A stretch of 64,000 nucleotides of DNA from Tubulanus polymorphus (Eukaryota > Animalia > Nemertea), in NCBI RefSeq assembly GCF_964204645.1, contig NC_134025.1:18575101-18639100 (forward strand). Reading direction: 5' to 3'. Within the stretch, counting starts at the first letter, position 1. The number at the start of each line of letters is the position of its first letter. Of the stretch, positions 3,776 to 63,960 are shown one piece after another. The translations under genes were made by a program, and so were the position numbers. A model generated the notes under the pieces. It did not search any database, had not been told where the DNA came from, and saw nothing but the letters and a program-made list of their open reading frames with translations.

Positions 3776-6482
3776 TCAAGCATCATCATCGTCATCATCA
3801 CCACCAAGCCCACAACATGCAGCCGATTTACATTTTTTAAGTAATGCCGATGAACATTTTCTATTATAACATACACCCTCATTTTGGTTTAGGATCATTA
3901 GACTTTCTAAAGTACTGACTGACATGCAACTTCTAAAATTGGTTAGGTTTTTCCGAACTAAGCTAAACAGCCTCTGACAGGCAGAATTACTATTTGGAAT
4001 ACACATAATACCTAACATAACCTGAGCCAACTTAGCATATTCTAGAGCCCCTTGTGGCTTCATCAACTGTTTTAAATCTGAGACCATAAATAATCATTAC
4101 GATGATTTACATCATCTATGGGAGGTAATTTTGGCAAAGTTTCTTCCACCAGATACATATTAAATTCTGATTCAATTTCATCAATATTCTGATTCAATTT
4201 CATCATTACTACAGCTTATGCTGCCAGTAACTTCACGCCTACGGCGAGCGCTGGAGGCGCGAAGTAATGACGGGGGTCAGAAAAATTTGATTTTTCACAT
4301 CGTCTCAGAACATTTTTCAGCAGTTTTAACATTAAAAGTGCACTCAGATAATCAAACAACATGGTCCGATGTTTTACCGTTAACACACTGCTGGTTCCAA
4401 GACAAGTCAAGATGCTCATCATCTATTAATTTGCATAAGAAAAACAATGTAGGCGGGGCCAAAAGCCATTTTTCATAACTACACACGAGCAACACTCGGG
4501 AAAAAAATCTATAATTTAGATACATATATCCACAGACACATGGTCATGATTATTAATCTTTTTCAACAAAAAATTTTAGGAAATGAAGGTATAACCTTGT
4601 AGTATATGATTGTAAGTTTACCATAGCTTTATTCTTGTGCCCTTTTGTAGCAGCATTCTCAACTGCTTCTTGGGAATCAGTATCAGTCTGCTTTTTAAAG
4701 AAATCTAATAAAGGATACCATTGCTCTAGTACCCAAGTTGCAGTTTGCTCTAATGACAACCATCTGGTCGGTACATGCTAGTCGTAAACGGTCAGGACCT
4801 TTTTCAAGGTAATAATATACAGCCACAAAGAAAGCATCAGACTCTATTTGTAATTCTTTACAACCCCAATATGCAGACAGATGAAACCTATGACAATTAC
4901 AGCCGGCTAAATACAAATTTGGAATTTGTCTAAGTTACCGACCATACACACCTTTGTTGGTACCTACCATTGTGTTAGTGTTATCAGCAGAAAAAGCCAA
5001 ACAATTTTTAAGTGGAATGTCATTAGAATTTAGAGTTTCAGTAATAATCTTAGCAATATTTTTACCAGTTGAATGGCCTACACAGTCCACAAGTGCCAAT
5101 GTTTCATTTTTAATTAATCCATCAGCAATTCTATTCACAACAACTGGGTATACCTTTTCTTTCCGTCCTCTGTCATTTGAGCCATCAGTGCTTATGGAAA
5201 AGGGACCACTTTGCATGTAGTTAATTGAACGTTTTTATGAATCTCTGGCCAACTCCTTTGTTATGTATCCAGCCTTTGTTCTTCCACATGAAAAATTTCT
5301 AATCATGTCTCTGACTTTTGAATTTGAAGGGAACATTGCCCTCAGAAGAGAACCTAAAATAGAAATTTAACCTTTTTATTTGTTTAAATAAAACAGATTA
5401 CAAGTGATAATAAATTGATTAACAATTTCCTTTTACTATGAAATTTTAAAGGAAGCTGATCAATTGATAATAGTAATCAAAGTTTGAAATTAAAATCTAT
5501 TTGAATTTGAAATATCATATCTTATTCATAGTAATGATTTGTTGTCACAACATATTATCTGCTGTATTAAAATCTTTCAATGGGGAGTTTTTAAATCTCA
5601 AACTCTCAGATTTTGCTGAGTTTATTTTGAAAAAATTTTTTTCAGTAACTATCCGATAATAAGTCTTCTAAGTACATACAGCCATTATATCTCTAGCACA
5701 ATGAGCTGGATGCCGCTGATAAAAATTTGTTTACATTAGCTGAACCAGATTCACCGCTAATGAGTGTGCTGGCCTACTCGATTTTTACACGAGCATAGCT
5801 GCAGGTGAATCATCACGAAACAAAATGTCAAGTGTTGCCAAGGCTACCAGGCATACAAACAAGCTCTATAAGGTTCATAGAAAGCCAGATAGATGGCATA
5901 GTAGGCACTCTTCTAACCACTGCGACCTGACTTCATAACCCGCAAAATCTCAAGAGTACAACGACTGTGTCGTCTGGTCACACCCCGCATTGATTGAGAA
6001 TTTTAAAACAAAATAAGATTTCATTTCACGAAATCAGATTCAGATTGATTTTAAAATCATTTCATTCACTAAAAATAGACAAGAACTTTAATAGGCATAC
6101 TTACCAAAATGATCAGCAGCAGACAAGGAATATTGTGTTCCACTAAAAATTCCCAAAATAAAGATTCAGCTCTGATTAGATCCAATGAACAATCAGATGT
6201 AGATGATTGTGTGAAACCCATATCCATTTTTTTTGTAAGATTTTTCTTAGGGATTGATAATTCAACATGCCGCTTCGTTTTAACATGCCAACTACAATCA
6301 TAGCGTCCTCCGTGTGAAATAGTAATATCGCAGTGACAGGCAGTGCAACTTATGTATTCATCCCCTTTGCTAGATCAAACTAACACTGGGAATTCACTTG
6401 TGTATTCCTTTCGATATTGACATATCCGCTTCTTTACAACTTGAACATTATTATCCGTGTCAGACAATGACAATGACACCAT
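3776..6482 (-). pseudogene. hAT transposase pseudogene, 2 exons (6482-6105; 5353-3776)
   Basis: BED finger CTACHCDITISHGGRYDCSWHVKTKRH. A GTAAGT..AG intron (6104-5354) splices to DHFGSLLRAMFP..FSCGRTKA. Also FSISTDGS, SADNTNTMVG, GCNCH and the dimerisation motif IPNSNSACQRLFS. Contains stops, frameshifts and an insertion. Confidence 0.88.
4240..4548. repeat. Interspersed repeat interrupting the hAT transposase
   Basis: Aligns with 39573-39898 (GGCGCGAAGTAATGACGGGGG...CATATATCCACAGACAC). Confidence 0.75.
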
Positions 6483-8440: not shown

Positions 8441-10577
8441 GTGATCATCACATACAATTAACTAAGGGACTAAAGGCTAATTTAAGTGTATTGTTTCCAT
8501 GCTGTGAACCGGCACTATTAAGATAATGTAAAATTTGAAGCACTGAAAGTTTACTAATTTTACTTCCAAGAATACAGTTCACTGTAATTAACCAATAGAA
8601 ATCAAGAATTTGATGCAACATCGCTCTCGATAGCGCAAAATCAAATAAAAAGCCCCGGGGCAGGGGGAAATTCAAACAGTATTCAAACAACGTCATCAAC
8701 TATCAATCATGAGCCAGCAACTGCGAAAAAGAATGAAATACGATGCCAGTTTCAAACTGAAAGTGATCGAAGCAGCGAGAGAATCAAACAACAGTGTAGC
8801 AGCCCATCAATTCTGCATCAACGAAAGATTGGAGAAAGGCGGAGATGTCCCTTAAAGAAATGCCGAATAATAAATGTGCAAACCGTGGGCAAAATCAGCG
8901 TAAAAGGCTGAAACTTGAAGCCGCAATTACCGCATGGGTCCATTCCTAAAGGCAGAGCGGCCACATCATAACACGAGCACTGATAAGGCTGAAATCCCTC
9001 CAGTGGGCCGAGAAGAATAAACAGGACAGCGCCGACTTCAAAGCAACAGCCAGCTGGTGTGCCTGATTCATGCGGAGAGAAAATCTAGTGCTTCGTCAAA
9101 AAACCAAAATTACGCAAAAGCTACCAAAAGATCTAGACGATAAGATCACGCAGTTCCAGTCGTTCATCATCAAGCAACGGAAACTGAAAGATTATGACAT
9201 GGCACACATCGGCAATATGGATGAATCGCCGATGTTTTTCAATATCGTTGGAAATCGAACCGTTAACATGAAAGGCGAAAAACGATTCTTGTTAAGACAA
9301 CTGGGCAAGAAAAACAACATTTCACTGTCGTTCTCGCTTGTCTCGCTGATGGCACCAAATTACCACCGATGGTGATTTTCAAAAGAAAGACTCTGTCAAG
9401 GGATAAATTTCCCGCTGGCGTTGTCATTCATGTCCAGGAAAAAAGCTGGATGGATGACGCTGGATGCGTTTAAACGGTTGGATGAAGTGTTGGGCCGTCG
9501 GCTAGGTGGATTATTAAAACCAAACTCATTATTAGTTTGGGATATGTTTAAATCCCATCTAACGGATAATGTGAAGCAACATTTAAAACCGCTTAAACGT
9601 TGCATGGCGGTTATTCTGGGTAGTTTGACATCCGTACTACAACCACTCGACATTTCTTTGAATAAACCATTCAAAGACCAAATTTCGGAAAAAAAGGAAC
9701 GAGTGAATGGCTTCAGGGCAGCATTCTTACACACCTGCAGGAAATATGCGCGCTGCCTCTTTACCGACAGTGTGTCAGTGGGTAAAAGGATGCCTGGGAT
9801 TTAGTCGACCAAGCAATCGTAGTCAAATCCTTTAAGAAATGTTCAATTGCGAATGCGATGGATGGAATGGAAGATGACATGCTTTGGGATGAGGATGACG
9901 ATATTCCTCTCAGTGAATTGCGGACCGCGGTGAATGATGAATCTGATTAAAAATCTATTCAGATCCGTATGATGATAGCATTCGAACCGATGAATGGGAC
10001 CTACCGTTTGGTGGCGGAGCCCGTTCAGACAAGCAAGTGTCATGTCTGATTGGATGAACAACCATTGAGTGATTGTGATTAGTGCTGGTGTTAATTATGA
10101 ACTATTGTATAATGTGATTGCCTGTGCTCGTAAATATTGTAATTGATTCTGGTTCCAATAAATAAGTTTTATTATAATGAATTACTTTCTTTGTTGGAGT
10201 TACCGGAATATTTATGGGATTCGAACACAATAGGAACGACTATCCATAAATCGCGTGCTACTCGTCCGATTCATTTGCCGATTAAATTTTCACAAATGTA
10301 TTTCCTTTATTTGAATAAATATCATAAAATTGATACAAAAAATGATTATGAGAAATACGGTGACGAAAGGACGATCGCTTATATGGTTCACAAACATGGC
10401 GGCACTTGATTAACAACTTCGCCAGTCCACATCGTATAAGCAAATACTTCGTCGATGAACTATTTCTCGTGACCTTAAAATACTAGTAGAAAACTGTACT
10501 CGGCGTATAAGTCGAGGTAAAAAATTCAGTGGTAAAATCATTGGTTAAAAACTCGACTTATACGGCGATTTTTACGG
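7415..10577 (+). mobile_element. pogo/Tigger-type DNA transposon
   Basis: TA|CCGTAAAAACCGGCGTATAAGTC ... GACTTATACGGCGATTTTTACGG|TA; TA target duplication; subterminal GTATAAGTCGA repeats. Confidence 0.92.
8709..9950 (+). pseudogene. pogo transposase pseudogene (Brinker-like DBD, CENP-B HTH, DDE_1)
   Basis: MSQQLRKRMKYDASFKLKVIEAA, FKATASW, IGNMDESP, LLVWDMFKSH, LTSVLQPLDISLNKPFK; multiple frameshifts and stops. Confidence 0.9.
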
Positions 10578-13094: not shown

Positions 13095-15437
13095 ATATAT
13101 AACATATATCAGCACATTATGCAACCAACTCACATCAAAGGTGGATCACCTAATTACAAGGGGTTGTGATGTTGACATAATAGGCCAGATATCGGTGGAT
13201 AAAAATTGGATGTCTGATTACTTTCCGTTCCATTTTGTGTTGAAATGCAAAGACCACATAGCTCAACCACATGTAAAATTAGCTATGAGGAAGTTAAAAT
13301 GGAGTAGATCCGAAAGTTTCGAAAGGATGTGCAGCAAGAGTTTTCTAACGCATCTAAGCAAACTGCAGAATTGTACAATAGTGTTCTGTCTACTCTTCTT
13401 GATGTTCACGCACCTATTAAAATAATGACTGTAGCGTTCAGGAGCAAGGTTCCTTGGTATAATAGGGATGTTAACTTGGCCAGACATTCTCGGAGAACAG
13501 CAGAGAAAGTGGCGCTCAACTAAACTTGAGATTCATCGCCAGATCTACAGAGCAGAACATAATAGGGTTGTTCGAACAATTAAAGTGATTAAAGGGATTA
13601 TAATAATAATCAAATTAGGCACGCAGCAGTTCAAGAACAATTTTAACAGATAACAAACACTCTTTTGAATAATAAGAAACAACTTCTTTTGCCTGATTAT
13701 GTACCTGGAACTGAGCAACACCTCGCAAACATATTTTCACATTTCTCTAACAAGAAGATCGTTGAAATTTATAATCATCTTACTGATGTCTGTTCTTCAT
13801 TCTCAGAACCTTTTGACATTGTTGAAAGTGAGTGTGCGAGGAAAAATAATCTTAATTTGTATGTACATCTCCTGATGACATATGTAAAATCATCAGACAA
13901 TCACCTTCAAAGCCATGTAGCCTTGATCCCATCCCAACTGACCTGTTAAATAACGAGCCTGTTCTCGACATTTTGACACCTACCGTCTCACATATTGTTA
14001 ATCAGTCACTAGGTTTTGGATCTGTATCGGATGTGTTTAAAGAGACACTTGTAACATCATTGCTAAAGAAACTGTCACTGGATGTCAGAGCTGAAAAACT
14101 GCAGGCCAGTATCAACCTTCCCTTTCATCAAAGGTCTTAGAGTGCGTAGTAGAGCATAGGGTACGGGATCACATGTTGAACAATAATCTGTTTGAATCTT
14201 TGCAGTCGGCATATAGGGCTAACCATAGCACTGAGACAGCACTCACATGGGTTTTTATTGATCTTTTGGTAGCTCTAGATAATAAGCAGGTGGCTGGTCT
14301 GGTACTACTAGATTTATTCGCTGCATTTGACACTGTTAATCATTCAGTTTTACTTGATAGGCTGAAAAACCGAATGGGTATCGATGGTTTACCACTTAAG
14401 TGGTTTCATTCTTATCTAGGGAACAGAACCCAACGCATTTCAGTTTCTGTTGCTTGTAGTCTGTCTACAGGAGTTCCCTAAGGCTCAGTACTTGGCCTTT
14501 TACTGTTCAGCATCTATATGGGTCCATTGGGTGATGTCATCCGCAAGCATAATATTCAGCATAAAATAATATATTCAGAATATATATAAGCATGAAGTAG
14601 TTTCCATTTCTTTGCAGATGATACACAACTTTACATCTTTTTTTATCCAGGGGAAACTGCTAGGCTTTAGCCATGCATTAGTGATGTACGGCAATGCACT
14701 GCCAGGAATTTCCTTAAATCTAACAATGTTAAGACAGAATTTTTGCTTATCCATTCGAAACACCAAGCTATATCTGATCTTCCTGTATCTATTAAAATTG
14801 GTGATCACAATATAGTTGCTGTTCCTGTTGCCAGGAATATTGGTGCTCTTGTAGACCAGCATCTAACAATGGAGCATCACGTGAAAGCTGTTTGTAAATC
14901 CTGTTATTTTCAATTACATAACAATGGGTTCATCCGGAAATACCTAACTACTGAAGCTACTACAACCCTAGTCAGTGCTTATGTTGCCTCTCGTCTGGAT
15001 GGGCTCAATGCTATGCTTGTTGGTTTACCACAACCGACACTTTACCGTCTGCAGAAAGTCCAAACTCTGCAGTTCGGCTAGTCTCTCCCATTCCTCGAAG
15101 GGAACATAACCCCTGTGCACCAAGATCTACATTGGCTAAGGGTTCCTGATGGAATAGAGTTCAAAATCCTATTACTTGCATCTAAATGTATCAATGGTTT
15201 CGCTCCACCATACCTGCAGGAACATGTTACTCTGTACACCCCACCGCGAACCTTGCGATCTGCGGACAACTTATTATTGGCACAACCCAGGATTACGCTG
15301 GCCTCGCTTGGAGTTTTCTAGAGCTGCCCCACGACTGTGGAATAATATTCCATGTTATATAAGAGCATTCAGCCGCGTCGCTTTCTTTAAGCGAAGTCTT
15401 AAGACCCTTCTATTTTCACAGGCAGCTGCTCAATAAT
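13095..15437 (+). mobile_element. L2/CR1-group LINE, 5'-truncated and decayed ORF2
   Basis: [74 protein letters not shown]. Confidence 0.9.
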
Positions 15438-30887: not shown

Positions 30888-33800
30888 ATAATAATAATAA
30901 TAATTTATTTTCTTATAAAGCCCAAGTCTAAAACATAATCATTGTGCTTGACATTAAAAAGAAAACATACATAAAATAGGGACACATATAAAAAAATTTA
31001 CATATTAAGTGGAATACTTGACTAGAAGTTATGACAAATATGTTCGATTAAAAAGAAAAGTTATGAGACTAGTTTAAAAAGATTGAACAGTAGGACTAGT
31101 TTTAACGTGACCAGGAAGCCCATTCCATAATGCTGGCGCCGCACACCTAAAAGCCCTCTCACCAAATTTCCGATTTGACTTAGGTATGACTAGATTTTTG
31201 GTTACTGAATTGGATCTAAGTTGTCGTAATAGAGTATAAACAGTTAAAAAAGATTTTAAATACTGAGGGGCAGTATCATTAAGACATTTATAGACAGTTA
31301 AAAGAATTTTGAACTCTGCTCGACCAGCAATTGGCAGCCAATGTAGATCCATTAGAATAGTTTTAATATGTTCAAACTTTCTAGTTCTTGTTATAAGCCT
31401 TGCAGCATTATTTTGAATTAGTTGTAGGCGATTAACTAGTGTGTTATTGGATCCAACAAGTAATGAGTTTGCGTAGTCCAAACGAGATGTGACCAGAGAA
31501 TTTACAGCAGTTTTACATGATTTATCATCAAGTAGGTTATGTATCTTACCAATAGTATATAAGTGAAAATTCGCAGCTTTACATACATTACTAACATGGT
31601 CAACGAGTGACAAACAATCGTCAAATAAAACACCTAAATTACGAATACATTGAGATGGATAGATCTTTGCACCATCTATAGTAAGAAAAATATCATTAGG
31701 CAGAAGACTCTTAAAATGCGGAGTTCCAAGTATGATAAATTCTGTCTTTTCACCGTTAGCTTTGAGTTTGTTTATGGTTAGCCAATTGAAAATGACACTG
31801 ACTAGTTTATTTAACATATTGAGTGTACTTGAAATTTCAACAAAGCATTTAGGATTAACAAACTTATAAAGCTGTTGGTCATCAGCATATATATGATACA
31901 GAGTAGAAAGCTGACGGATAATCTCTCCAATAGGTAGTATATATAACGTAAAAAGTAGAGGCCCTAAGACGGAACCTTGTGGGATACCACATTTAAGTGG
32001 TTTACTTGAGGAGCTTGATCCCTCGACAACTACAGTTTGAGTATGGTTAACCAAATACGAACGAATCAAATTAAGTACATTGCCATCAAACCCAAAATCT
32101 GATCGAAGACGTTCAATAAGAATACCATGGTCTATTGTGTCAAAAGCTGCCGAGAGATCAAGCATAACCATAAAAACAACTTTGCCATCATCCATACCAG
32201 ATAAAATATCATTGGTGACTCTGAGTAGAGCCGTTTCAGCGCTATGATGTGCAAGGTAGGCAGACTGAAACGGTTCAAAAAGATTATGATTTTTAAGGTG
32301 ATCAATAATTCTAGAAGATATGACCTTCTCAATGACTTTGGACATGAAAGGAATATCAGATACCGGTCGGTAGTTCTTTAGAATTTGGTTATCAAGAGAT
32401 ACCTTTTTTAACACTGGATGAACAATTGCATGTTTAAGTTCATCTGGAAAAACACCAGATGTAATGCATTGGTTAACTATTCTAACAAATACACTAAGCA
32501 TACCAGATGTAGATAAGACTGATTTAAATAAGCCTGTAGGGACTGGATCCAACAAACAGGACTTAGGGGCCATTGACCCAATTATTAATTTACCTAGTTC
32601 GTGATCATCAGTTAAATTTAAATTACTCAATATTAAGGGATTACGTTCTTCAAGCGAAAATAGGGGATCACATTCAACTTTGTCAAGATCACAACGAATA
32701 CTTTCAATCTTCTCTGAGATGTAGAGAAATTTTCAGCTAATTCTACACTCTGACCAGTTGGCAGTTGCCTAGAATAATTATTCAAAAGGTCATTATTTAT
32801 GATTTTAAAGGTTTGTTTTACATCAGTCATTTTACTACAGTAGTATGCAGATTTAGCAGTTTTTTATCATATCGACGACTAAATTACGTTGGTGAATATA
32901 CATATCCTTATGAACTTGAAGACCAGTTTTCCGCCACTGGCGTTCCAGTTTCCGCCGCAATTGACGAGCGGTGTGAATATCTGCACAATACCATTTTGAT
33001 GTGCCTGAGCGTATCTTTCTCTTACGTGTTGTTAACGGCGCATATTTCTCTAACAGGCGAACACCACTGACATTATAGTCCTGGACCAACTTATTCACAC
33101 ATGTAACTGGCTCAACTAATGACGATGCCCATTCACGACCAAAGTCAAGTGTTTCAACAACTCGGAGATTCCTGAAAGTCTGGACAATAATAGGGTTAGG
33201 CGGTTTAGCTAGGTTCAGTTTAGAGAAAACACTATAATGTGGTGAAATAAGTGATTTTTCAACATCGATGTCGTACACAACATTATCCATTAGCCTAGAA
33301 ATCACAAGATCAAGAGTATGACTCTCTATGGGTAGGTCCTTTGACTAATTGTTCAAAACCATAGGCACAAATAATATCAAGAAACTTGCTAACATCAGGC
33401 TTCGTGGGTATATCAATGTGGACGTTAAAATCACCAACTACAACAATCGGCAATTTAAATGAACTAAGCACACTCAGACATAATTCAAATTCCTCAAGAA
33501 ATGTACCAACCGTGAAATGATTACTTTTCGACGGAGGTGGACGGTAGATGATAATGTAAACAACAGTATTCTGTCCAGATTTAACCTCTATCTGCATGAT
33601 TTCAAAAGTTTTATAAGGACCGCGTGGTTTTTGTTTTTCCACATGCACAGAAGTTTTAAAAACAACTCCAATTCCACCACCACGCTTTCCTGTTCCACGT
33701 GGGGAGCTAAAAATGTTGAAACCAGATTCAGACAGCTCAACCAAGGCACGCGAATCATAACATTGTCTTTAATCCATGCATGTTTCAGTGAGGAATATCA

Positions 33801-49463: not shown

Positions 49464-49905
49464 CAATAAATTCACATGGTTTAAGAATAATGAATTAAAA
49501 GAATGACCCTACCTTTCCATTCTCAGCAAATTTGGATAAATAGTCTTTCAGTTCAGATTTCATATCATTGTAACCTAAAGAAAAAGTTCTTTGTTCAAAA
49601 TCGTCATAATACAATCATGAAGACAAATCCAGATTTTGAAACAACTCTAAAAATCCAGAGTTCCAGATATATCTGGAACTCTAGCATCCTGGAATAAGAG
49701 AATTTCAGTAAAAGCTGGTTAGAATCGACGTGTAGTTGACAAAACAAGATAAAGCAAAATATATCTCACTTCAAATGGCTTTCTTGCAACTTTGGTGGCA
49801 TGCATTTTATTGATTGAAATGACTGTGAGGCGGACAATTTTACAAACCATACGCATTGTGAGTACCACTGAATTTTTACAAATGAAAACATGTGTAGTTC
49901 CTAAA

Positions 49906-50175
49906 ACATCCTCCCTAGGCAGGGATTTGAACCTGATGGCGTCACTACACTCAGCCACGGCACAAACCCCTGGCACACTAGACCGGGTGAGGTACATTTC
50001 AAGGAAGAACTATAAATGGGAAAACCCGGCCTAAAATAAAATGGGATATCTGATTGGCTGATAATGACATCATCTAAGCTGCACGTGTAGCTGTGCACTC
50101 GGTATGGTGTGGCAGGGTTTCGTACTGTGGCAATCTTGATGCCATCAGGTTCGAATCCCTGCCGGGGAGGATGTT
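49906..50175. mobile_element. MITE family A, best-preserved copy
   Basis: ~35-bp imperfect TIR: ACATCCTCCCTAGGCAGGGATTTGAACCTGATGGC / GCCATCAGGTTCGAATCCCTGCCGGGGAGGATGT. Confidence 0.8.
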
Positions 50176-51062
50176 CCTGAAAGGGCTAATGGTATGAAGT
50201 GCTTCCTCGATAAATGACTTGTGGTTGCAATCACTGTTTTTGGAATAGACAGTTAATGTCAGAGATTTAAATCGTTTTCTCTGCCGTTAAGGTTGCAATT
50301 ATCTAATTTTTGTATGATTTCCTTCCCAACTTGATTTTTTAATCAATCAAATTAAGTCATCAAAATTTAGCACTGCTAGATATTTCTGAATTCAGTAAGT
50401 TCATGTAATCCTCATTTGGAAAACAAACTTCCCTAATCAGGAACTGTCGATTTGCAGGAATTGTTATAAGAAATGAAAACTAGAGAGAATCTTTCTATGT
50501 GGATGGGTTAGCAACAAGATAATATCAGTTCGATTGAAGACATTCAAATGAATTCTACTTGCAAATACCTAGGCCTCAATCTATTCCCACTGAACAGTAA
50601 GGATGTTCAACTGTTCAAAATTAACAGTAGTTTCAAATGAATCTAATAACGAATCAAAGAATTCGACGCCTGTAAGACCGAGTGAAAGCTGTTCATCCGA
50701 AAGAAGTGGCAGCCTACTCGCCTTGTAGTTACCACTCTAGTGACAACGTACCCAAAACTGAGCAAATCATAGGAACCTTGATGTGTTTATGTTTCATCAC
50801 GAATCGTAGGCACCGTGTTATTGTCTCATCATACACCTTAGCGTCATCACATTGTGCAAGTAGGACACAGAGGTCCACAATTCAATTCAATTCAATATAT
50901 CTTTATTGTCCTTTGAGTAATATAAAATACAAGTCAGGTTTTTTTACAATAAAGATGAGAAAAGGGTAACATAAAAAATTTATAGGAAATCATACTAAAA
51001 ACGCAATTGAAAAAGAATAAACATTAGATAAAAAAGGAAATAACAATAACAGCGATCGATTA

Positions 51063-52751
51063 TTTACATACGTTGTTCAAAGCCCAACGCGATGAATTTT
51101 CCGAGCGCTTTGGTTAGTTTAGGGGAACACATAATAATTTTGAATTTTTCCGAATTGACCTCATTTTCATGAAGGGGATAATATTCTTTAAATTCCATCA
51201 AAAGGTCTTTCTTGAGCTCCTGTAACTTTGTACATTCAAGTAGAAAATGTAGCTCATCTTCTATTACATTGCAACTTGTGCAAAGTCTTTGTTCTTTTGG
51301 TGTACTGGTATACCTTCCTGTTTCAATGGCTAACTTTTTTGTCCATATTCTTATGGATTCGTTTTGCTAAGTTTCTCTTAGGTAACCATATTTCGCATCC
51401 ATATAGGAGTATAGGGGTTACTAGAGTGTCAAATAATTGGAGCGATATATCAGGGGGGCAATTTTGGCTACCTATTAACCTCTGTACTGCGAACATAGCC
51501 CTACTCGCTGACTTGAATAGTTCCTCTCTAGCTCTTAGGAAACTACCTGTTGAACAAAACATCAAACCAAGATATTTATACTCTTTTACAATATCAACTT
51601 CTTGATTGCCCAGGTAAACTTTAGAATGAATCGGTATTTGTCCTTTCTTGTTGAAAATCATGCATTTGCTCTTTTCAGTGTTAATTTCTAATTTCCATGT
51701 TTCACAGTATTTTGACAATTTATCGAGACATTTCTGGAGACCCCTTTCCGAATTAGACACGAGTACCAAATCGTCAGCGTACAACAAACAATTTACAAGT
51801 AATTCCCCAATGGTGGTTGGATCCCATTCTTCATCAAAAATCGATACAATATCATTCACATAAAGGTTAAAAAGCATGGGGCTCAACACATTCCCCTGCT
51901 GTACTCCAATGCAAAACTCAAATTTATCAGATGCAGAAAATGGTCCTAGTTTTAGACGGCATGTCATGTTTTCATACATACTTTTAATTATTTCATTGAA
52001 GTGACTTCCAATTTCAGATTTTCTTAGTTTATGAATGAGACCTTGATGCCATAAAGAGTCAAATGCCTTCCTGAGATCTATGAAGCAACAATACAATTTA
52101 CCCAAGGTGGACAATTTGGAATCTATGAGTTTTTTTAAAGTTAACTTGTGATCTGTAGTTCTACTTTTTGGCATAAAACCAATCTGATTGGGGGTTATAA
52201 GGTTTTTATTGATAAGGTAATTAGTAAGTCTATTATTGAGGACCTGACAAAAAGCTTTACCCAAACAGCTACCCAGTGTGATTCCTCTATAATTATCTGG
52301 CAGCGTTCTGTCGCCTTTTTTCAGCAGAGGTACAATAAGACCTTCAGACCAAGATGTCGGGAATATACCCTTTGAGTAGACGAAATTGAACAATTTGGCA
52401 AGTGGTTTGATTATGTAGTCTTTGCCATATTTAAGTAGCTCGTTAGTTATTCCATCAAGACCTGAGGATGTACTGTTTTTAAGTTTAGACAGAGCACTGG
52501 ATATTTCTTCTTCAGTAATCCGGTAGTCTAATTCTGTAAAAACATTGTCGGCTCCAGATAAGCTGTCTTCGACAACGTTTTCGTGACAAATTTTGGCAGC
52601 GTTCAGCGACTTAAAGTGGTTGATAAATTCTGTAGAATTTTACAATATCATGTGGTTTTACTAGGTTTTGGAAACATACATCGTTTAATTTATCCATGCA
52701 CTGGCTAGAGAGACCATGTATATTCCATGCACACATATTAAGTAAGGGCAT
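51063..52751 (-). pseudogene. ORF2 remnant: APE N-terminus, deletion, RT (open 52393-51323), deletion/frameshift, CCHC-type C-terminus
   Basis: MPLLNMCAWNIHGL..HDIV, then a jump to GLDGITNELLK, NYRGITL, FIDLRKAFDS, GVQQGNVLSPMLF, LLYADD, PILLYGCEIW. Confidence 0.88.
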
Positions 52752-52825
52752 TATTATTCCGTTCAGGCAGGAGACTTCTTCCTAACCGGAGGAGTGTTAT
52801 AGACAAATTTCAGCTGGTTATTAAA

Positions 52826-54157
52826 TTAATTATGTATTCTTGGACGGGTAAATAATTTTAGAGCCCGTCTTACACCAGTGGCTAGATTGTTCGCAAATTG
52901 CCTTATACCGTTCTTGTTGTTAATGTGGAGGTCGTCTCTGTAGTATCGACGTCGGTCATTCAGGTTGTCGTGACGGATAACGTAAGCATTTCTATCTGCA
53001 GCTGCGAGCGATTCGAGCGTATAGTTAAAGGTTGAAGACTGGTCACCAAGACTTGGATGGTCGAATCTAGGCGGTATCTGAGAAACAACCAATCGTGTAT
53101 CTGGGAAGTAGAACTTAATTTTGTTCACAAGGCTGACAAAGCGATCTACACAGGTATTGGCACAATGTAGGTTTCGAATATCATTAGTACCAACATGTAA
53201 AACGATGCATGCAGGGTTTTTGCTTCTAATTCTATCCACAACTTGGCCTGCTTCTTTAATTGTATACGCCGTAAAGTTTTCAACCTGGCATTGATCGTTC
53301 ACAAAGCGGTTAGTGTCGATATATCGGATGTTCGAGTCTCCGATGATAAACACGTTATTACTTTGGCGACCCACGCGTTCTGGCGGATTTTTGTTGTCAC
53401 GGATATCACGGTTGCTCTCTCTAGATATTTCCGGCGGATACTTGTCACATCTATTTTCCAATCCATGGCGCCTCTCACTGTACAAGGGGCGCTCTAACTG
53501 ATTGTAATACGTATTGTTGTGAACCTCGCGGTACTTATCTCTTTTGCGGCGCGTTAGCTTATGGACGGTTTTTCCGGCTGGCTTCAATCTAGATTCTTCG
53601 TTGTCCCCGTATAATCCTAGTGACGACGTCGATGATATCGTTGAGTATTTGTCATCAAGGTCGGTTCCTTGTGACTGAAACGTTTGGATGGCCTCAAGCG
53701 ATTTCGAGGCTATATCTTGCAGGTTATCGAGTCTAGTTTCTGTGTTACAGACTTTCTGTAAGATATCACGTGTACGGTTAACACTCAGGTCCGCGATTTT
53801 CTTTAAATGTTCAGTCGTCTTAGCCGTTTCACTCACTGCGACCACTAGTTCGTTGATGTGGTCTACGCGTTTTGTGCAGTCTTCAAGTTTTTGTTGTAGC
53901 TGTTTTATTTGAGAAGACTGTGAGCATTGATTTACCTGCTGCAATATGTTTACCGTTGATTGTTGTATCGAGTTAAACATATTCATTATGTCTTCACCGT
54001 AAATTACTGTCATATCGGTTTGACAACTAGCGTTACGAGTATTCGAAGGTTGTGGCTCAGTTTGGATTTGTGCTTCTGTCTTGTTCGATGCGCAGGCGTA
54101 CCCCAAACTAGCCTCACTGGCCGGCGCTACTGTAAGTTTTTCGACAGGCTGGTGCAT
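52826..54157 (-). CDS. ORF1 C-terminal part: coiled coil + SGNH/GDSL esterase-like domain
   Basis: 443-aa open frame; heptad-rich QIKQLQQKLEDCTKRVDHINEL; SGNH blocks IIGDSN, LHVGTND and DDLH. Confidence 0.85.
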   Translation of the reverse strand: MHQPVEKLTVAPASEASLGYACASNKTEAQIQTEPQPSNTRNASCQTDMTVIYGEDIMNMFNSIQQSTVNILQQVNQCSQSSQIKQLQQKLEDCTKRVDHINELVVAVSETAKTTEHLKKIADLSVNRTRDILQKVCNTETRLDNLQDIASKSLEAIQTFQSQGTDLDDKYSTISSTSSLGLYGDNEESRLKPAGKTVHKLTRRKRDKYREVHNNTYYNQLERPLYSERRHGLENRCDKYPPEISRESNRDIRDNKNPPERVGRQSNNVFIIGDSNIRYIDTNRFVNDQCQVENFTAYTIKEAGQVVDRIRSKNPACIVLHVGTNDIRNLHCANTCVDRFVSLVNKIKFYFPDTRLVVSQIPPRFDHPSLGDQSSTFNYTLESLAAADRNAYVIRHDNLNDRRRYYRDDLHINNKNGIRQFANNLATGVRRALKLFTRPRIHN

Positions 54158-54228
54158 TTGTTATGAGTCAAACCTTCGCATAACGAACATTGGATCATGC
54201 TGTTCGTGTCCGGCCCGGAGCAGCAGGA

Positions 54229-54835
54229 TTATTTGTCATTCTGCTTTGAAGAACTCACGGATAACGCAGATTGCGATGGAACTTTCTTGAAGATTATCTC
54301 CAACAACTGAGGTAAGGCCTGGCTTAGCCAAACTAAGTAGGAGGAACCCTGAATGTGTAGTTTCGGAGATTTTTTAGTTGATCCCTTATACAAGGTAATG
54401 TGTACCGTTCCCAATGCAATTTTTTGAGTGTCTACATACACACCGCTGAAATGTACGCCATGATCCCCTCTATCGACAGGGTTTCCATACTGCGATCTAA
54501 ATTCCGAGTGAAATAGCTTAATTTTGTCCTTGCAATGCGAAAGATCAATAACGAGTGACTGTGATTTCTCATTTATGTTTATACTTTTGTTTGGAATACC
54601 AATGTTATCTTCCTCGCGGAAGGATCTTTGACGTTTGTCACTGCTTGACGGTGATGAAATATGACTGGTGTACAATATTTCTCGCAATTGAATATACGCT
54701 GCATTCAATTTTTGGAATTTAGAAGTCGAGTCCAGAGAATTATTCCTATCTGGGTGTATTTCACGAGCAAGAGTTAAGTACTGCAGCCGTAGAACATCCT
54801 GTGACGTTGGCATATCATAACCACATTATAAATGT
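54229..54835 (-). CDS. ORF1 N-terminal part: DnaJ (J) domain + unnamed domain
   Basis: TSQDVLRLQYLTLAREIHPDRNNSLDSTSKFQKLNAAYIQL, with HPD at 54756-54748. Helix-I-like YNV.GYD lies across a frameshift at ~54825. Confidence 0.8.
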
Positions 54836-55779
54836 GGCTGGAATAAAAATAAATTATCGTATTCATGAATACCAAATCGTAGTTTTTAAATATCTTGAGA
54901 TTTTTTGGTGAAAAATAGTATTTTGCTGATTTAAAGAGAAAAACGTACTTTGACCGTACTGCCATACTGACAATGACGGTGAGTGTTGTCTACTGTTATA
55001 TACTAACTCATACTATGGTCAAGTTTCAGGTTCGCGCTTCATGCACAGCGTATTCCTGGCTACTTATATTTCAGATTTTTTCCGGTTTGTAACTGTTTCT
55101 GTGTATGGGTATTGTCCCTATAGTAGTTACCTCTCTATATAATCTCATAACATTTAGTTTTCTGGGCATTTGCCATTTGAGTTTAGACCATGTGAATCTA
55201 GCCGGATGAAGAGCTGTAAGTTGTATGCAATGTACTACCTCAAATTTTGCCTACTTCTGAAATTCTTATTTATTGAATATGTATTTAGCTGTTGTTCTAT
55301 TTTTTGTAGTTAACTCGTTATCGTTTTCGCTACCGCTCGGCCGGTCATTAAACAGTTTGACATTAAAGCGTTGTCCAGTTGTTGGTCCTTTGTCGCTCAG
55401 TCTCCGACAGTGACTTGAGTCAAGTGATATCCCGATATGACATAAGGCAGGGAAATAATGATTATTTAACAGAATTCCTTCAATTTTTTTCTTTCAGAAA
55501 TGAATTCACTCTTTCTTTCAACAAACTCAGCCATGGTATATGACCACATAATAGCACGAGTAAGGACGTTCTGCTAATGAATTGTTGTTCACAACGAGTG
55601 AAAAATGCTGCACTTTAGCGGCTGAAAACTGGTAAGTAATTTTCGTGATTTTAGAGGAAAAGAGCGGTGTGAATAGACAACCATCCTCAGCCACCCGAAC
55701 TCATTACAAATACGTCTGGATTAGGCGGAAGAACAAGCTCAGGCCTACGAACAAACAAAAACAAGCCATATAACCTGGG

Positions 55780-56720
55780 CCATAAACACAGAGCGAACTG
55801 CGGACAACAATCCCAGTTGGTCAGCTGAGACTAGTCCTTAAGGTAAAACGAAGTAAAGGTTGAAGGACACAAAAGGCTGCCCGACACACCTACTCCAAAG
55901 CAACTTCCATGAAAGCTACGCAAGATGTCCACATGACCAAACTTGGTGGGAAAAACCCTCTCCCCAGGCATGTCTGGAAAAGAAGAAAGAGATTCCTCTA
56001 TCTCATCTACAATCCAGCACGAGATTGACTCTCGACAAATGTCTGCCTTGACCTGTCACTAAGGCAGGAAAAGGCTATCCGTCAAGGTTAGGCTCCATGA
56101 CCTGCAAGTAACGCTTGAGTGCTCAGACCAGACACAATACCAAACTGGAAGATACTTAGTCATTCTGAGTCAGTGCTTGGATACGCCATTCTTGAGCCAC
56201 ACACGAGGGCTGTTGGTTCTTAGCCAGACACACCGAGCCTCAACAAGACAAATCTATCACCAGGGTCGAAGAATATATCATGGTTCCCACAGTTATATGA
56301 ATTCAAAATTCCCAAGTATTTCATGGGTGATTTATTAATTTTCCCAAATGGAAATGAACTTATATCGTCATACTACAGTTAACATTTAAGTGGAGACTGG
56401 TTGATAAAGGTGATTTTCAAGAGAAATCACCGAAGAAAGTTGCCCTTGGCAAATGTAGTACGTGAAATGTAAATGAATTTCCCAAATATTTCCCTGTTTT
56501 GAGGAATATTTTTCAAATTCCCAAATATTTCCAAACTGGAAATTATCATTTCAAAATTCCCAATTTTTTCCCAATTTCCCTGTTCTGTGGGAACCATGAT
56601 ATACTTCCTTCCAGGACCAAGAATCTTGCAGCCATTGCCAGGCATAGGAGGACGGCCGTCTTCATGGAAAAATACACTGTAGAGATCCATTGGTGATCGT
56701 GACTGACGTCCCCAGGTGAG
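55780..56720 (-). pseudogene. DIRS-type tyrosine recombinase remnant, interrupted by a MITE
   Basis: SMKTAVLLCLAMAAR, ISCWIVDEI, VALE*VCRAA and STFTSFYLKD occur in the expected order. Confidence 0.68.
56279..56598. mobile_element. MITE with CATGGTTCCCACAG TIRs
   Basis: Perfect inverted repeat (extends to 19 bp with TATA flanks); internal TTCCCAAA repeats; TSD length ambiguous. Confidence 0.8.
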
Positions 56721-58084: not shown

Positions 58085-58505
<421 letters not shown>

Positions 58506-59302: not shown

Positions 59303-61517
59303 AACCACGGGGACAAAACCAAAATTATGAATTGTCGCGGGTGACAAAACCAAAATATTGAATTGTCACGGGCGACAAAACAAAAATAATGAATTGTCGC
59401 GGGCGATAAAACCAAAATAATGAATTGTCGCGGGCGATAAAACCACAATAATGAATTGTCGCGGGCGTTAAAACCAAAAAATTGAATTGTCGCGACGATA
59501 AAACCAAAATAATGAATTGTCGCGGACGACAAAAACAAAATATTGAATTGTTGCGTGCGACAAAACCAGAATAATGAATTGTCGAGGGAGACAAAACCAA
59601 ACTAGGGGTCCAGGGACACCATGCTCACTTGGGAAGTGGTTTCAAATGCTCAACAATCTAACAATTTCAATACAAAACGCCCTGTAGTGACCATATACAA
59701 AAACCAATGACCTATGATTTTGTAATTGATTGTGATAACAAAATATGCCTCGTTACCAATTTAATATGGAAATACTAAGTTATTCTACTATTCAACGCCC
59801 CTGGTGACCATATGCAAAACCCAATGACCTTAAAACTCACCACAATCGTAGTACATGTCATAAAATACAACTTTGCAATTGATCATAGTAACAAAATATG
59901 CACAGGTACCAATCTAATAAGGAAATACTAAGCCATTCTACTATTCAACGCCCCCTGGTGACTATATGGAATAACTAATGTCCTTAAAAACTCACCACAA
60001 TCATAGACGATGTCATGATCTACAACTTTGCAATGGATCATGGTAACAAACTATGCCTAGGTACCAATCTAATAAGGAAAAACTAAGCTTTTCTACTATT
60101 CAACGCCCCCTGGTGACTATATGGAATAACTAATGTCCTTAAAAACTCACCACAATCATAGACAATGTCATGAACTACAACTTTGCAATTGATCATGGTA
60201 ACAAAATATGCCTTGGTACAAATATAATATAGCAATACTAAGTTATTGTATTATTCAACGCCCCCTGATGGCCACATACTAAAACCAATGACCTTGAAAC
60301 TCACCTAAATCATAGAACACGTTATGGGCTACAACTTTCCAATTGAATATAGTGGCCCCCTGATGGCCACATACTAAAACCAATGACCTTGAAACTCACC
60401 TAAATCATAGAACACGTTATGGGCTACAACTTTCCAATTGAATATAGTAACACAATATGCTTAGGTATCAATTTAATGTGGAAAAACTTTTTCCCACCTA
60501 CGAATGAGTACTGATGACACCAAGATGGCCGCCAATTGCGTCATAATTGGCTGATCAAAAATACCTGTCCCAGGTATAAAACATCCCTCTCTAAGGAATA
60601 CCCATCAGCAATTGCAATGAGAAATGGCAAACCAGTAGGAAGCTACAGGACCTAGATTTCTGGCCAAAATTGACATTTTTGGGCACTAAAAAGCCCATAG
60701 GACGGCCATCTTGAGTCAGATCGACCCAATTTTCTTATGCTGATGGGCCTTTGGTAGATTCAAATATGAACGAAAGATCAAGGTAATTGATCAAAGCGTC
60801 TTCAACATTTCCCACGAAAACTTCGAAAATGTTTAAAAAGTGCTGATTTTGGCAAACAACAATGGCTGCCAGTCGGCCATCTTGAATCTGACAGGGCCAG
60901 TTTTTGGGCTGACGATGTGTCTAGGGTAGATACATGTATAAACCAAATATCACGACATTACCTTGAAGCGTCTTCAAAACTTCCCAAAATAACTGGATTC
61001 CGTCTATGGACGGACGGACGGACGAAAAGTGAACACAATAGCCCGCTGGGACTAAAGACCCAAGTGGACTGAAAAAGAATTGTCGCAGGCGACAAAACCA
61101 AAATAATGAATTGTCGCAGGTGATAAAACCAAAATAATGAATTGTCGCGGGCGACAAAACCAAAATAATGAATTGTCGCGGGCAATAAAACCAAAATAAT
61201 GAATTGTCGCGGGCGACAAAACCAAAATAATGAATTGTCTCGAGCGACAAAACCAAAATAATGAATTGTCGCGGACGATAAAAACAAAATATTGAATTGT
61301 CGCGGGCGATAAAACTAAAATATTGAATTGTCGCGGGCCATAAAACAAAAATAATGAATTGTCGCGGGCGACAAAACCAAAATATTGAATTGTCGCGGGC
61401 GACAAAACCAAAAAAAAATTGTCGCGGGTGACAAAAACAAAGTATAAAACCAAAATAATGAATTGTCGCGCGCGTCAAAACCAAAACCAAGAATTGTCGC
61501 GGGCGACAAAACCAAAC
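59297..61517. repeat. 31-bp palindromic tandem array 1 (split by a family Z insertion)
   Basis: Unit GAATTGTCGCGGGCGACAAAACCAAAATAAT at 59297-59600 and 61076-61517. Confidence 0.95.
59601..61075 (+). mobile_element. Helentron-like non-autonomous element (family Z) with ~155-bp internal tandem repeats
   Basis: Starts ACTAGGGGTCC; TTCAACGCCC at 59791, 59944, 60099 and 60254; (GGAC)n; 3' hairpin near 61042-61068; inserted in an A-run without TSD. Confidence 0.75.
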
Positions 61518-62691
61518 AAGAAAATTAATTTTAGAAAATTATTTGACGCCTGGGGAAAAAATGTAGAATTTCTGGGCTTAGCTAATGTGGAATTGCAAAT
61601 TTGAAATCGAAGTTTTAAGAAATTTGGGGAATGATGAGATTTGGCGATTGGGTAGATGATACAGGCTCAGGTCTTCGACTCTAGTAGTGGTTTAAATTTT
61701 TTTATTGAAAATTCTCAATAATTGATCGCGAACTTGCGACCGACATCATTTACTTATGCCTCTAAGCTGGTTTGCAACTTCATTGCCTCCATGGATGAAG
61801 AAAGAGCTCTTCTGATGTCTGCTTCATCATGACTTCGAGCATATCGTGTGGCCTAGCCAGCCGGCCCGGGCCACGGGTTTGGGCTGTCACTCGATATCCT
61901 AGAGTCTTGAGTCTGGGTGGGTTGAAGTAGACATTGTCATTTAAAATAACATGCTTATGTTGTTCTGTATGAATTACCCATGTGTCATGTATGTTGTATT
62001 AATTTATTTTAAAATATGTATTTATTGAATTTGGGAATTTTATCCCGGAATTTCAATGTAATAAGGATCAATAAAGAATTGAATTGAATTGTCACCTAAT
62101 ACACATGCCATCAGAGGACACGGAGCCGTATATGACAGCCATGCTATTATAAAATGCTAATCTCACGACACTTGCATACTCCTAATATCAAACATATTTT
62201 CTAAAACGTTTGAATATTGAAATTATATGTTTACACATTTTCATATTGACCGCTTGTAGCCGCTGATGAAATTCACGCTTGCCCTACACACATCGTAGAT
62301 AGCTTCGTCATTCCACCGGCATGCCCACGTCAGGGTCTGACTTTTATATCAGACTTCCGCATCGTGTATACATCCGCCATTTAACCGAATAATCCGATTT
62401 ACTTATCATTTCAATTTATACCTGCCGCTTCTGATATAATCATACATCCTTTACTATTACAATACGTCTTCTAATGATATTCAATGCAATATAACATTTC
62501 GACGGTCAAATATAGGTCATTATATAATCACAGGAAGCCATTCTACATCTATGTCAATAATATTTTGCCAGATAGCTTGTTTGTGTACACATAAACCTGT
62601 GACGTTTTGCACATCGATTTACGGCTGTCGTTTGTAAAATGACGCTGAATGGTTAGCATTGTTTAGGTTTCATAATGGTAACGTTTTATAA

Positions 62692-63440
62692 GGCGTCAAA
62701 AAAAGAATTGTCGGGGCGACAAAACCAAAATAATGAATTGTCGCGGGCGACAAAACCAAAATGGTGAATTGTCCAGGCGACAAAACCAAAATGTTGAATT
62801 GTCGCGGGTGACAAAACCAAAATAATGAATTGTCGCGGGCGATAAAACCAAAATAATGAAATGTCGCGGGCGATAAAACCAAAATAATGAATTATCGCGG
62901 GCGATAAAACCAAAATATTGAATTGTCGCGGGCGATAAAACCAAAATAATGAATTGTCGCGGGCGACAAAACCAAACTAATGAATTGTCGTTGGCGACAA
63001 AACCAAAAAAAGAATTGTCGGGGCGACAAAACCAAAATAATGAATTGTCGCGGGCAATAAAACCAAAATAATGAATTGTCGTGGGCGATAAAACCAAAAT
63101 AATGAATTGTCGCGGGCGATAAAACTAAAATAATGAATTGTCTCGGTCGACTAAACCAAAATAATGAATTGTCGCGGGTGATAAAACCAAAATAATGAAT
63201 TTTCTCAGGCGACAAAACCAAAATAATGAATTATCGCGGGCGATAAAACCAAAATATTGAATTGTCGCGGGCGACAAAACCAAAATATTGAATTGTCGCG
63301 GGCGACAAAATCAAACTAATGAATTGTCGCGGGCAATAAAACCAAAATAATGAATTGTCGCGGGCAATAAAACCAAAATAATGAATTGTCGCAGGTGATA
63401 AAACCAAAATAATGAATTGTCGCGGGCGACAAAACCAAAA
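62692..63440. repeat. 31-bp palindromic tandem array 2
   Basis: Same unit as array 1, preceded by TAA|GGCGTCAAA. Confidence 0.95.
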
Positions 63441-63960
63441 TAAATTGCCCATGGGCAAAGTGTGGTTTACCTTGAAAGCTAGAGGTTGTTTGGGGTAAGG
63501 GCATTGCTTGAAAAATCTTTTTAATTCGTGACTTCAAAGTTCTATTGTATTTCATCTTTCTCAAAGAAATATTTTGTAGTCAAATAAGACCAAAAATATA
63601 CATTTGTTTGGTCCACGTCCAAAATTTCGTAGGGTACAGGTAGGCGCGGCAGGGAAACTATTTTATATTTTCAAAGAAATATTTTTCACAATATGAAAAA
63701 ATATTCAAATAAAATTCATATGATGTCACATATCAGAGAGTGGCTGAATATTGAGTCTTGGGAACGAAACCTCTTCCAATGTATGGCCGTGGAATCTAAA
63801 ACACCGGAGCGTAGTATTAGATCATTTTAAATCTTGGAATTAACCATTACAATATTCAGACCTCGACCTATACCTATAGTTTGCTGCTTAATATTTTCAG
63901 GTCACAAGAAATTACAATTTATTATAAATTATATCAAACAGAAAACATAGCGCTCATCTT
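63441..63960 (+). mobile_element. Family Y 5' portion inserted into array 2
   Basis: Aligns to 25055-25570. Confidence 0.8.

Follow-up and report, generated by a model that had tools for sequence, protein, structure and literature searches.

A J-domain at the head of a LINE ORF1, traced from a dead copy in the nemertean Tubulanus polymorphus to its relatives

The DNA analyzed here is a window of 64,000 nucleotides from Tubulanus polymorphus (NC_134025.1, positions 18,575,101 to 18,639,100; all positions below are those of the window). On its minus strand, from ~55600 to 50878, lies a decayed long interspersed nuclear element (LINE) whose first open reading frame (ORF1) starts with the remnant of a DnaJ (J) domain. 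Read 5′ to 3′, the element is composed of a 5′ region, the J-domain, an unnamed domain called X here, a PHD finger, a coiled coil, an SGNH esterase, the start of an endonuclease, a reverse transcriptase (RT), a CCHC piece, and a (TTGAA)3 tail. Because its relatives carry J before X, the J-domain is, judged from sequence, a standing ORF1 module of these elements. The explanation regarded as the most probable, and held with reasonable though not high confidence, is that these elements supply a co-chaperone of their own: in active relatives, the ORF1 protein (ORF1p) would bring cytosolic Hsp70 of the host to the ribonucleoprotein particle (RNP) of the element. The window locus itself belongs to a low-copy LINE, of which it is a dead copy reduced by deletions.

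The J-domain in the window copy and in its relatives

The 198-codon frame P0001 (54825-54232, minus strand; from translation) scored 30.2 bits against the Pfam DnaJ profile, above the curated (gathering) cut-off of 27.8 (E 4.8e-07), with residues 8-47 covering profile positions 13-53 of 63; the 49-residue J piece alone reached 34.0 bits. The remnant (54679..54822, minus strand; PF00226, with DnaJ matches in the PDB) consists of helices II and III, and the HPD motif stands between them at 54756-54748. An earlier note, made from the letters alone, had postulated exactly this, a J-domain with intact HPD ahead of the remainder of a LINE ORF1, and the Pfam score bears it out. The helix I it had proposed, a piece beginning "YNV" that requires a frameshift, could not be upheld: when scored with a profile of 40 relatives, it was equalled by 48% of 5000 random places (1% in the case of "GYD" itself), which is chance level. 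Contigs in two runs of one sample diverge from the window exactly at 54813, continuing with 934 and 601 unaligned letters, respectively. Because the contigs break there, helix I was probably lost from the window copy by deletion, with which the chance-level score of "YNV" agrees. Helix I is thus missing here and present in relatives, where profile position 1-3 is matched and where the predicted model of one of them, P0004, has a helix at residues 4-9. When full-length relatives were aligned by tblastn, a single frame ran from 54807/54822 via J, X, and a single TAA into the PHD finger (to ~54136), and the coiled coil and esterase of the window aligned in the next frame. This pattern implies one stop and one frameshift between J and esterase, consistent with the few lesions the note had described; J lies, as it had also stated, upstream of esterase and RT on the same strand, with no terminal inverted repeat (TIR) between. 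Neither an inverted-repeat pair nor an Rfam match stands out there.

Relatives were collected with phmmer, P0001 being searched against 1.84 billion representative proteins, and with a second search seeded with a profile of X alone. The phmmer search returned 80 matches, most of them spanning J and X together, in which Pfam recognized DnaJ at the N-terminus (up to 84 bits) and, in the long ones, PHD and a GDSL esterase downstream; the X-seeded search returned 104 proteins. Word-indexed protein searches (P0001 against longer proteins; full-length alignment A1) yielded no new relatives. The pool comprised 156 representatives, X being present in 148 (the other 8 were dropped), and at least 60 residues precede X in 112 (the 36 without room upstream were left out of the J count). 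J was found upstream of X in 110 of these 112, 16-73 residues before it, with HPD kept in 104 of the 110; in the X-seeded set alone, J was present in 73 of 74 and HPD in 68 of the 73. J, X, and esterase lie in a single frame in 44 proteins, 43 of which have HPD, and the order J-X-PHD-coiled coil-SGNH, which the earlier note had pieced together from the broken copy, is read as a single open frame in many relatives.

HPD was kept in 40 of 42 lineages made non-redundant at 55% X identity, the median X identity of these lineages being 32%. Across 41 aligned J-domains A25, H29, P30, and F50 are invariant, D31 is present in 40, and position 21 is Y or F in all 41. Median pairwise identity over 41 sequences was highest for J (43%), the best conserved of the three domains compared, followed by X (36%) and the esterase (22%); of the 44 J-X-esterase proteins, 4 did not enter this comparison, and the esterase is truncated in 3 of these. 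J and X distances co-vary in the non-redundant set (Mantel 0.26, p 0.0005), and linkers between the domains are unalignable among relatives. The PHD finger varies in position, standing right after X in some relatives and ~200 residues further on in others and being apparently absent from P0018, P0023, and P0039, while J and X stay adjacent. In a tree of 97 columns, the deep branches of which are weak, the window X groups with the J-X-PHD-coil-esterase proteins P0004, P0009, P0013, and P0023 at 97/90. For the J-domain of a relative, the PDB sequences that match best (DNAJB9, DnaJ2, DNAJC5, and DNAJB12) span classes A, B, and C. The predicted full-length model of P0004 (predicted template modeling score 0.33) contains J (helices 4-9, 18-32, and 41-59, the latter two flanking HPD) and, beyond it, X, PHD, an extended coiled coil, the esterase, and a helix at the C-terminus, with flexible linkers between them.

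Several relatives have further domains. Pfam recognizes NADAR in the J-X ORF1 relatives P0036 and P0038 (E 3e-07 and 2e-20); NADAR enzymes strip ADP-ribose from DNA, and NADAR may be a second unlisted ORF1 module. P0061, P0073, P0067, and P0079 constitute a divergent J-X group; in P0061, the place of PHD and esterase is taken by a coiled coil and weak matches to C2H2 zinc fingers. P0181, found in four sources, is a J-X-esterase-CCHC protein with HPD changed to HPE.

That the J-domain is part of a LINE is supported by copy number and by the company it keeps. In raw reads of X5, another sample carrying this species label (12% of the run was covered, at 80% likeness), the J bin had a depth of 32.7, compared with ∼17-46 for most RT and ORF1 bins and 3.2-9.3 for four flank bins. 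The depth of the element is about five times that of its flanks, i.e., roughly five copies' worth, and since J has the depth of the element, it belongs to the repeated unit; the objection, raised in the note itself, that other copies might lack J fails on this depth. A non-LTR-type RT (LTR, long terminal repeat) lies downstream of ORF1 on the same strand, and the element is multi-copy, ends in a 3′ simple-repeat tail, and has neither LTR nor TIR. Of endonuclease and RT, the RT is there (RVT_1 E 2.1e-38), and what is taken as the apurinic endonuclease at the start of ORF2 is cut short after 37 codons (52751-52641); in the relative P0154, the frame goes on into PF14529/PF03372.

Of 104 clusters, 21 comprise 6-35 members at 90% identity, many of them located on multi-Mb contigs; in the P0016 cluster, the 9 members (235-816 residues) are on multi-Mb contigs of eight different lengths. 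Other relatives were on contigs of 5-9 kb, which equals the size of a whole element, and many relative frames are intronless and multi-copy, with truncated sister copies. P0176 is 99% identical to the J-bearing P0016 over 556 residues and then continues in frame into RT; P0154 is 95% identical to P0149 over 377 residues and then continues into endonuclease. Both are best read as deletion derivatives. An independent host gene, the other possibility named at the outset, is hard to reconcile with relatives that are multi-copy and, in these two cases, fused to LINE ORF2 parts. The RT of P0176 scored 154 bits against that of an unrelated LINE in the window (an endonuclease-RT element at 31074-33768, minus strand, with a 552-residue RT frame) versus 94-95 bits against the RT of the element described here, which is only 26-28% identical to either. 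Because the RT of P0176 is closer to that of the other LINE, the J-type ORF1 seems, from these sequences, to sit on more than one RT lineage.

A pattern search with X in JGI metagenomes gave one locus from 22 matching stretches, and none from 13 in viral contigs; prokaryote genomes held no match to the pattern. The recovered locus, L001 (JAAUYG010224076.1), encodes J-X, directly followed by a weak NADAR match (E 1.3e-3; L001:1081-1904), and then ends. Look-alikes of X in the Atlas (0.86-0.87), to be taken as a lead only, fall mainly in clusters with few recorded members, these being Mollusca and Cnidaria.

Domain X and its predicted fold

X (54292..54579, minus strand; profile match, P0001 residues 83-178) is an alpha/beta domain of ∼95 residues for which a TBP-like fold class is predicted, at scores which common folds also reach. 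The model of a relative's X (9 sequences; predicted local distance difference test 84.9) has strands and two helices. Foldseek found nothing below E 0.001, KA1 and RnlA domains ranking high (RnlA at E 0.04). With VIA-align, the CYTH tunnel protein 5a61_A came top with a Z of 8.2, the sole value above 8, followed among others by the N-terminal domain of RNase H3 (3vn5_A, Z 7.3; 69 aligned, root-mean-square deviation 2.6), KA1 domains (6.3-6.9; 5iri_B 6.9), METTL16 (9u48_A, 6.7), and RnlA (5.6). Atlas features of X point to RnlA-type domains (0.81-0.84), and Pfam RnlA_toxin matched one of 80 proteins (E 0.002). The likeness of X to RNase H3, RnlA, and KA1 domains is one of predicted fold only, from which no function is transferable. 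The RNase H3 N-terminal domain binds RNA:DNA hybrids, 4py5 among the structure matches is a complex with RNA/DNA, and METTL16 KA1 binds U6 RNA according to PDB entry titles; the same fold class takes in protein-binding appendage and KA1 domains.

Anatomy of the dead copy and its surroundings

All features of the element are on the minus strand. The multi-copy 5′ region (54826..55627; read depth 25-79 vs 3-6 beyond 55628) is a putative 5′ untranslated region; no Rfam match was obtained at E 0.5 within 49500-56500, this region included. At 55025-55627 depth is roughly double (56-79) that over the remaining element (∼32), and this part may be common to another, possibly non-autonomous, repeat; 55220-55323 was skipped by one contig and 9 reads. 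A pyrimidine tract ending in CAG (54838-54853), 25 nucleotides upstream of the ATG at 54813, resembles a splice acceptor. The premature TAA between X and PHD is at 54229..54231 (from translation; relatives align across it in a single frame). It is followed by the PHD finger (54080..54228; Pfam PHD E 1.9e-4 on 54130-54228), with a frameshift near 54135. The first CxxC pair of the window PHD is 9 nucleotides shorter than in other copies, and 5 of 46 reads carry a 9-nucleotide insertion behind 54215, as does the X1 contig.

The coiled coil and esterase are encoded by the 444-codon frame P0002 (54160-52829; from translation). The former is predicted at 53666..53980, with weak Pfam matches to helical families (P0002 residues ∼60-165) and long helices at the same place in the P0004 model; the SGNH/GDSL esterase (52859..53344) narrowly exceeds the Pfam Lipase_GDSL_2 cut-off (33.0 vs 32.9 bits), its GDS, GTND, and DxxH motifs being present. 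ORF1 stops at 52826-52828. The 37 codons left at the start of ORF2 (52641..52751; from translation) contain WNIHGL, which is taken here as the endonuclease-start motif; the remaining endonuclease is gone from the window copy, and an X2 contig has 43 unaligned letters past 52639, where it breaks off. The RT frame P0003 (51323..52639) includes a piece, 52256-52297, over which depth doubles and which has loose ends at either side; this points to a sequence common to another repeat family. The C-terminal piece of ORF2 with its CCHC-type motif (51064..51335; from translation) is joined to the RT via a probable internal deletion at ∼51335, and contigs from three runs start or stop at 51335-51336. 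The tail, (TTGAA)3 TTG, is at 50878..50895, and depth is single-copy below ∼50800. No terminal repeats were found in the element, no inverted-repeat pair stands out around J and ORF1, and a target-site duplication was not convincing, since the ends share words of 7-8 letters only, the best of which lies outside the multi-copy region. Three deletions, at 54813, 52640, and 51335, are probable in the window copy, which is dead and cannot function.

The window contains other repeats. A very high-copy, short SINE-like sequence is located at 50000-50175 (depth ∼5600 vs ∼6 in the flanks; no Rfam match). Further coding remnants are a second LINE RT fragment (14095-15081), another RT fragment (497-1413), a hAT dimerisation-domain fragment (3776-4093), and a DDE_1 (pogo/Tigger-type) transposase fragment (9067-9804). 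A 31-bp minisatellite in three arrays (9.5, 11.8, and 24.3 copies) and a 155-bp array (4.1 copies) occupy 59308-63443, and (CAGA)28 is at 58342-58455.

Proposed chaperone recruitment, its alternatives, and known ORF1 architectures

An HPD J-domain stimulates Hsp70 to hydrolyze ATP on a client presented by a neighboring domain, and in class C J-proteins the neighboring domain positions the client for Hsp70. Activation of hepatitis B polymerase requires Hsc70/Hsp40, and in auxilin J is used in coat disassembly. The proposal that ORF1p recruits Hsp70 stems from the conservation of HPD, and the presence of a J-type ORF1 in many divergent families would be best explained by selection for such recruitment. 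ORF1p would multimerize through its coiled coil, thereby displaying several J-domains, each of which would trigger Hsp70 ATP hydrolysis on an adjacent client. X, 16-73 residues downstream of J, would be the likely client-positioning domain, and the likeliest client would be the element's own product made in cis. The outcome would be either folding or activation of the ORF2 protein or loosening of the ORF1p coat ahead of target-primed reverse transcription. Multimerization via the coiled coil is described for ZfL2-1 ORF1p (PMC3905857). A more far-reaching version is put forward tentatively, and as clearly less probable: an old, broad invertebrate LINE assemblage on more than one RT lineage would encode a J-protein ORF1p, its TBP-like X would be a structured domain binding RNA or an RNA:DNA hybrid, J-X would put host Hsp70 on the RNP and drive its ATP-dependent remodeling, and HPD to QPD would be a one-residue off switch. 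An RNA-binding X is attractive because, in esterase-class ORF1ps, the RNA-binding part is not known and a structured domain for it was not found (Schneider et al, 2013; PMC3905857).

Several observations weigh against recruitment of Hsp70 to the RNP by a LINE-borne ORF1p. Among the 148 X-bearing proteins, 36 begin too near X to show whether J precedes it. That J is more alike than the esterase does not alone prove that selection acted within the elements, because J-domains are conserved everywhere. Many cluster members may stem from few genomes, and one locus may recur among them from several assemblies. P0154 and P0176 could reflect the insertion of another LINE, and an intact ORF1-ORF2 DNA locus of a relative was not found, the sole one recovered, L001, ending within ORF1. 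X is mostly acidic (median net charge −3 in 32 proteins), which disfavors RNA binding; as a consequence, protein binding is predicted to be at least as likely as RNA binding. A basic nucleic-acid-binding surface on X was considered and is unsupported by net charge.

The acidity of X, together with the protein-binding appendage and KA1 domains in its predicted fold class, would suit an ORF1p that recruits Hsp70 to a host target, with PHD reading chromatin and ORF1p remodeling chromatin or a silencing complex (anti-silencing or target-site access). The T antigen J-domain acts on pRb-E2F, and both the window copy and many relatives have PHD after J-X; the variable position of PHD, and its apparent absence from P0018, P0023, and P0039 while J-X remain adjacent, argue in the opposite direction. 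SILENZIO, an Arabidopsis J-protein, acts with HSP70 on the chromatin of transposable elements (TEs), but represses TEs (PMC8616336). A host target is the main alternative, though a rather improbable one. Less probable still is that a host gene once supplied J-X, which was then carried along as a folded but dispensable passenger, or that the intact relatives are partly domesticated host genes. The ORF1 of ZfL2-1 enhances retrotransposition in HeLa cells without being essential for it (PMC3905857), as one would expect of a dispensable part; retention of HPD in 40 of 42 lineages at a median X identity of 32%, with linkers that are unalignable, speaks against this reading, as do the many intronless, multi-copy frames with truncated sister copies. 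Chance juxtaposition, i.e., a DnaJ pseudogene fragment or a chimera in the window copy, might be suspected from how heavily that copy is rearranged, with its three probable deletions. It is given hardly any credence, as J is in frame with X both here and in 110 relatives, J depth equals element depth, and the window X groups with J-bearing proteins at 97/90; a one-off chimera is refuted by read depth, the J-X linkage of relatives, and the X tree.

The element can be compared with known ones. Esterase-class ORF1ps (RTEX, CR1/L2; ZfL2-1, RTEX_BF, RTEX-1_SK, and RTEX_NV) likewise have a coiled coil, linker, and SGNH esterase before endonuclease-RT (PMC3905857). Ahead of the coiled coil, where J and X are found here and where some relatives add NADAR, C2H2, or CCHC, the paper names no domain; "DnaJ" is absent from its text and from the part of the supplement searched. 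The element thus has the coiled coil and esterase of an RTEX-type ORF1, which are not diagnostic of RTEX because they are common to CR1/L2; RTEX labels are absent from the supplement of PMC11203168. ORF1 types I-V (Khazina & Weichenrieder), as extended by Metcalfe and Casane (2014), share a modular ORF1 with PHD and esterase, and their listed modules are RRM, CCHC, CTD/Tnp22, coiled coil, PHD, esterase, and zf/lz, J not being among them (PMC4120745). Whole ORF1s move between RT lineages according to the same source, whose subject does not extend to RTEX, and no J-domain was found in its available text or in three supplements, the sole "dnaj" string being a run-together reference. A word search for DnaJ in PMC5890265 was negative, and in the available part of PMC3753637 DnaJ occurs in a remark on a host interactor.

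Class C J-proteins and polyomavirus T antigens similarly join an N-terminal HPD J-domain to unrelated targeting domains; in contrast, the ORF1p described here has no G/F region, zinc finger, or DnaJ C-terminal domain and is retrotransposon-encoded. A J-domain LINE ORF1 was not found in full-text literature searches, which do not reach Repbase and Repbase Reports. According to Table S1 of PMC3905857, the RTEX_BF and RTEX-1_SK ORF1s hold 265-355 residues ahead of the coiled coil. Because these lancelet and acorn-worm ORF1s have room for J-X-PHD, Repbase may already contain J-type ORF1 sequences, with or without annotation. As judged by domain order, the ORF1 architecture, which many divergent families carry, is new on an element of known kind, its novelty being subject to the content of Repbase.

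J and X would be two additions to the catalogue of ORF1 modules, and retrotransposon ORF1s may be what lies behind intronless "DnaJ" gene models of this domain order in assemblies of invertebrates. How the ORF1p coat assembles, stays soluble, and is removed before reverse transcription is an open question for all LINEs. If the proposal is true, an ATP-dependent host machine joins the LINE cycle and transposition is tied to the heat-shock system; a LINE-borne Hsp70 activator would then be a direct genetic handle, as one point mutation should uncouple the chaperone.

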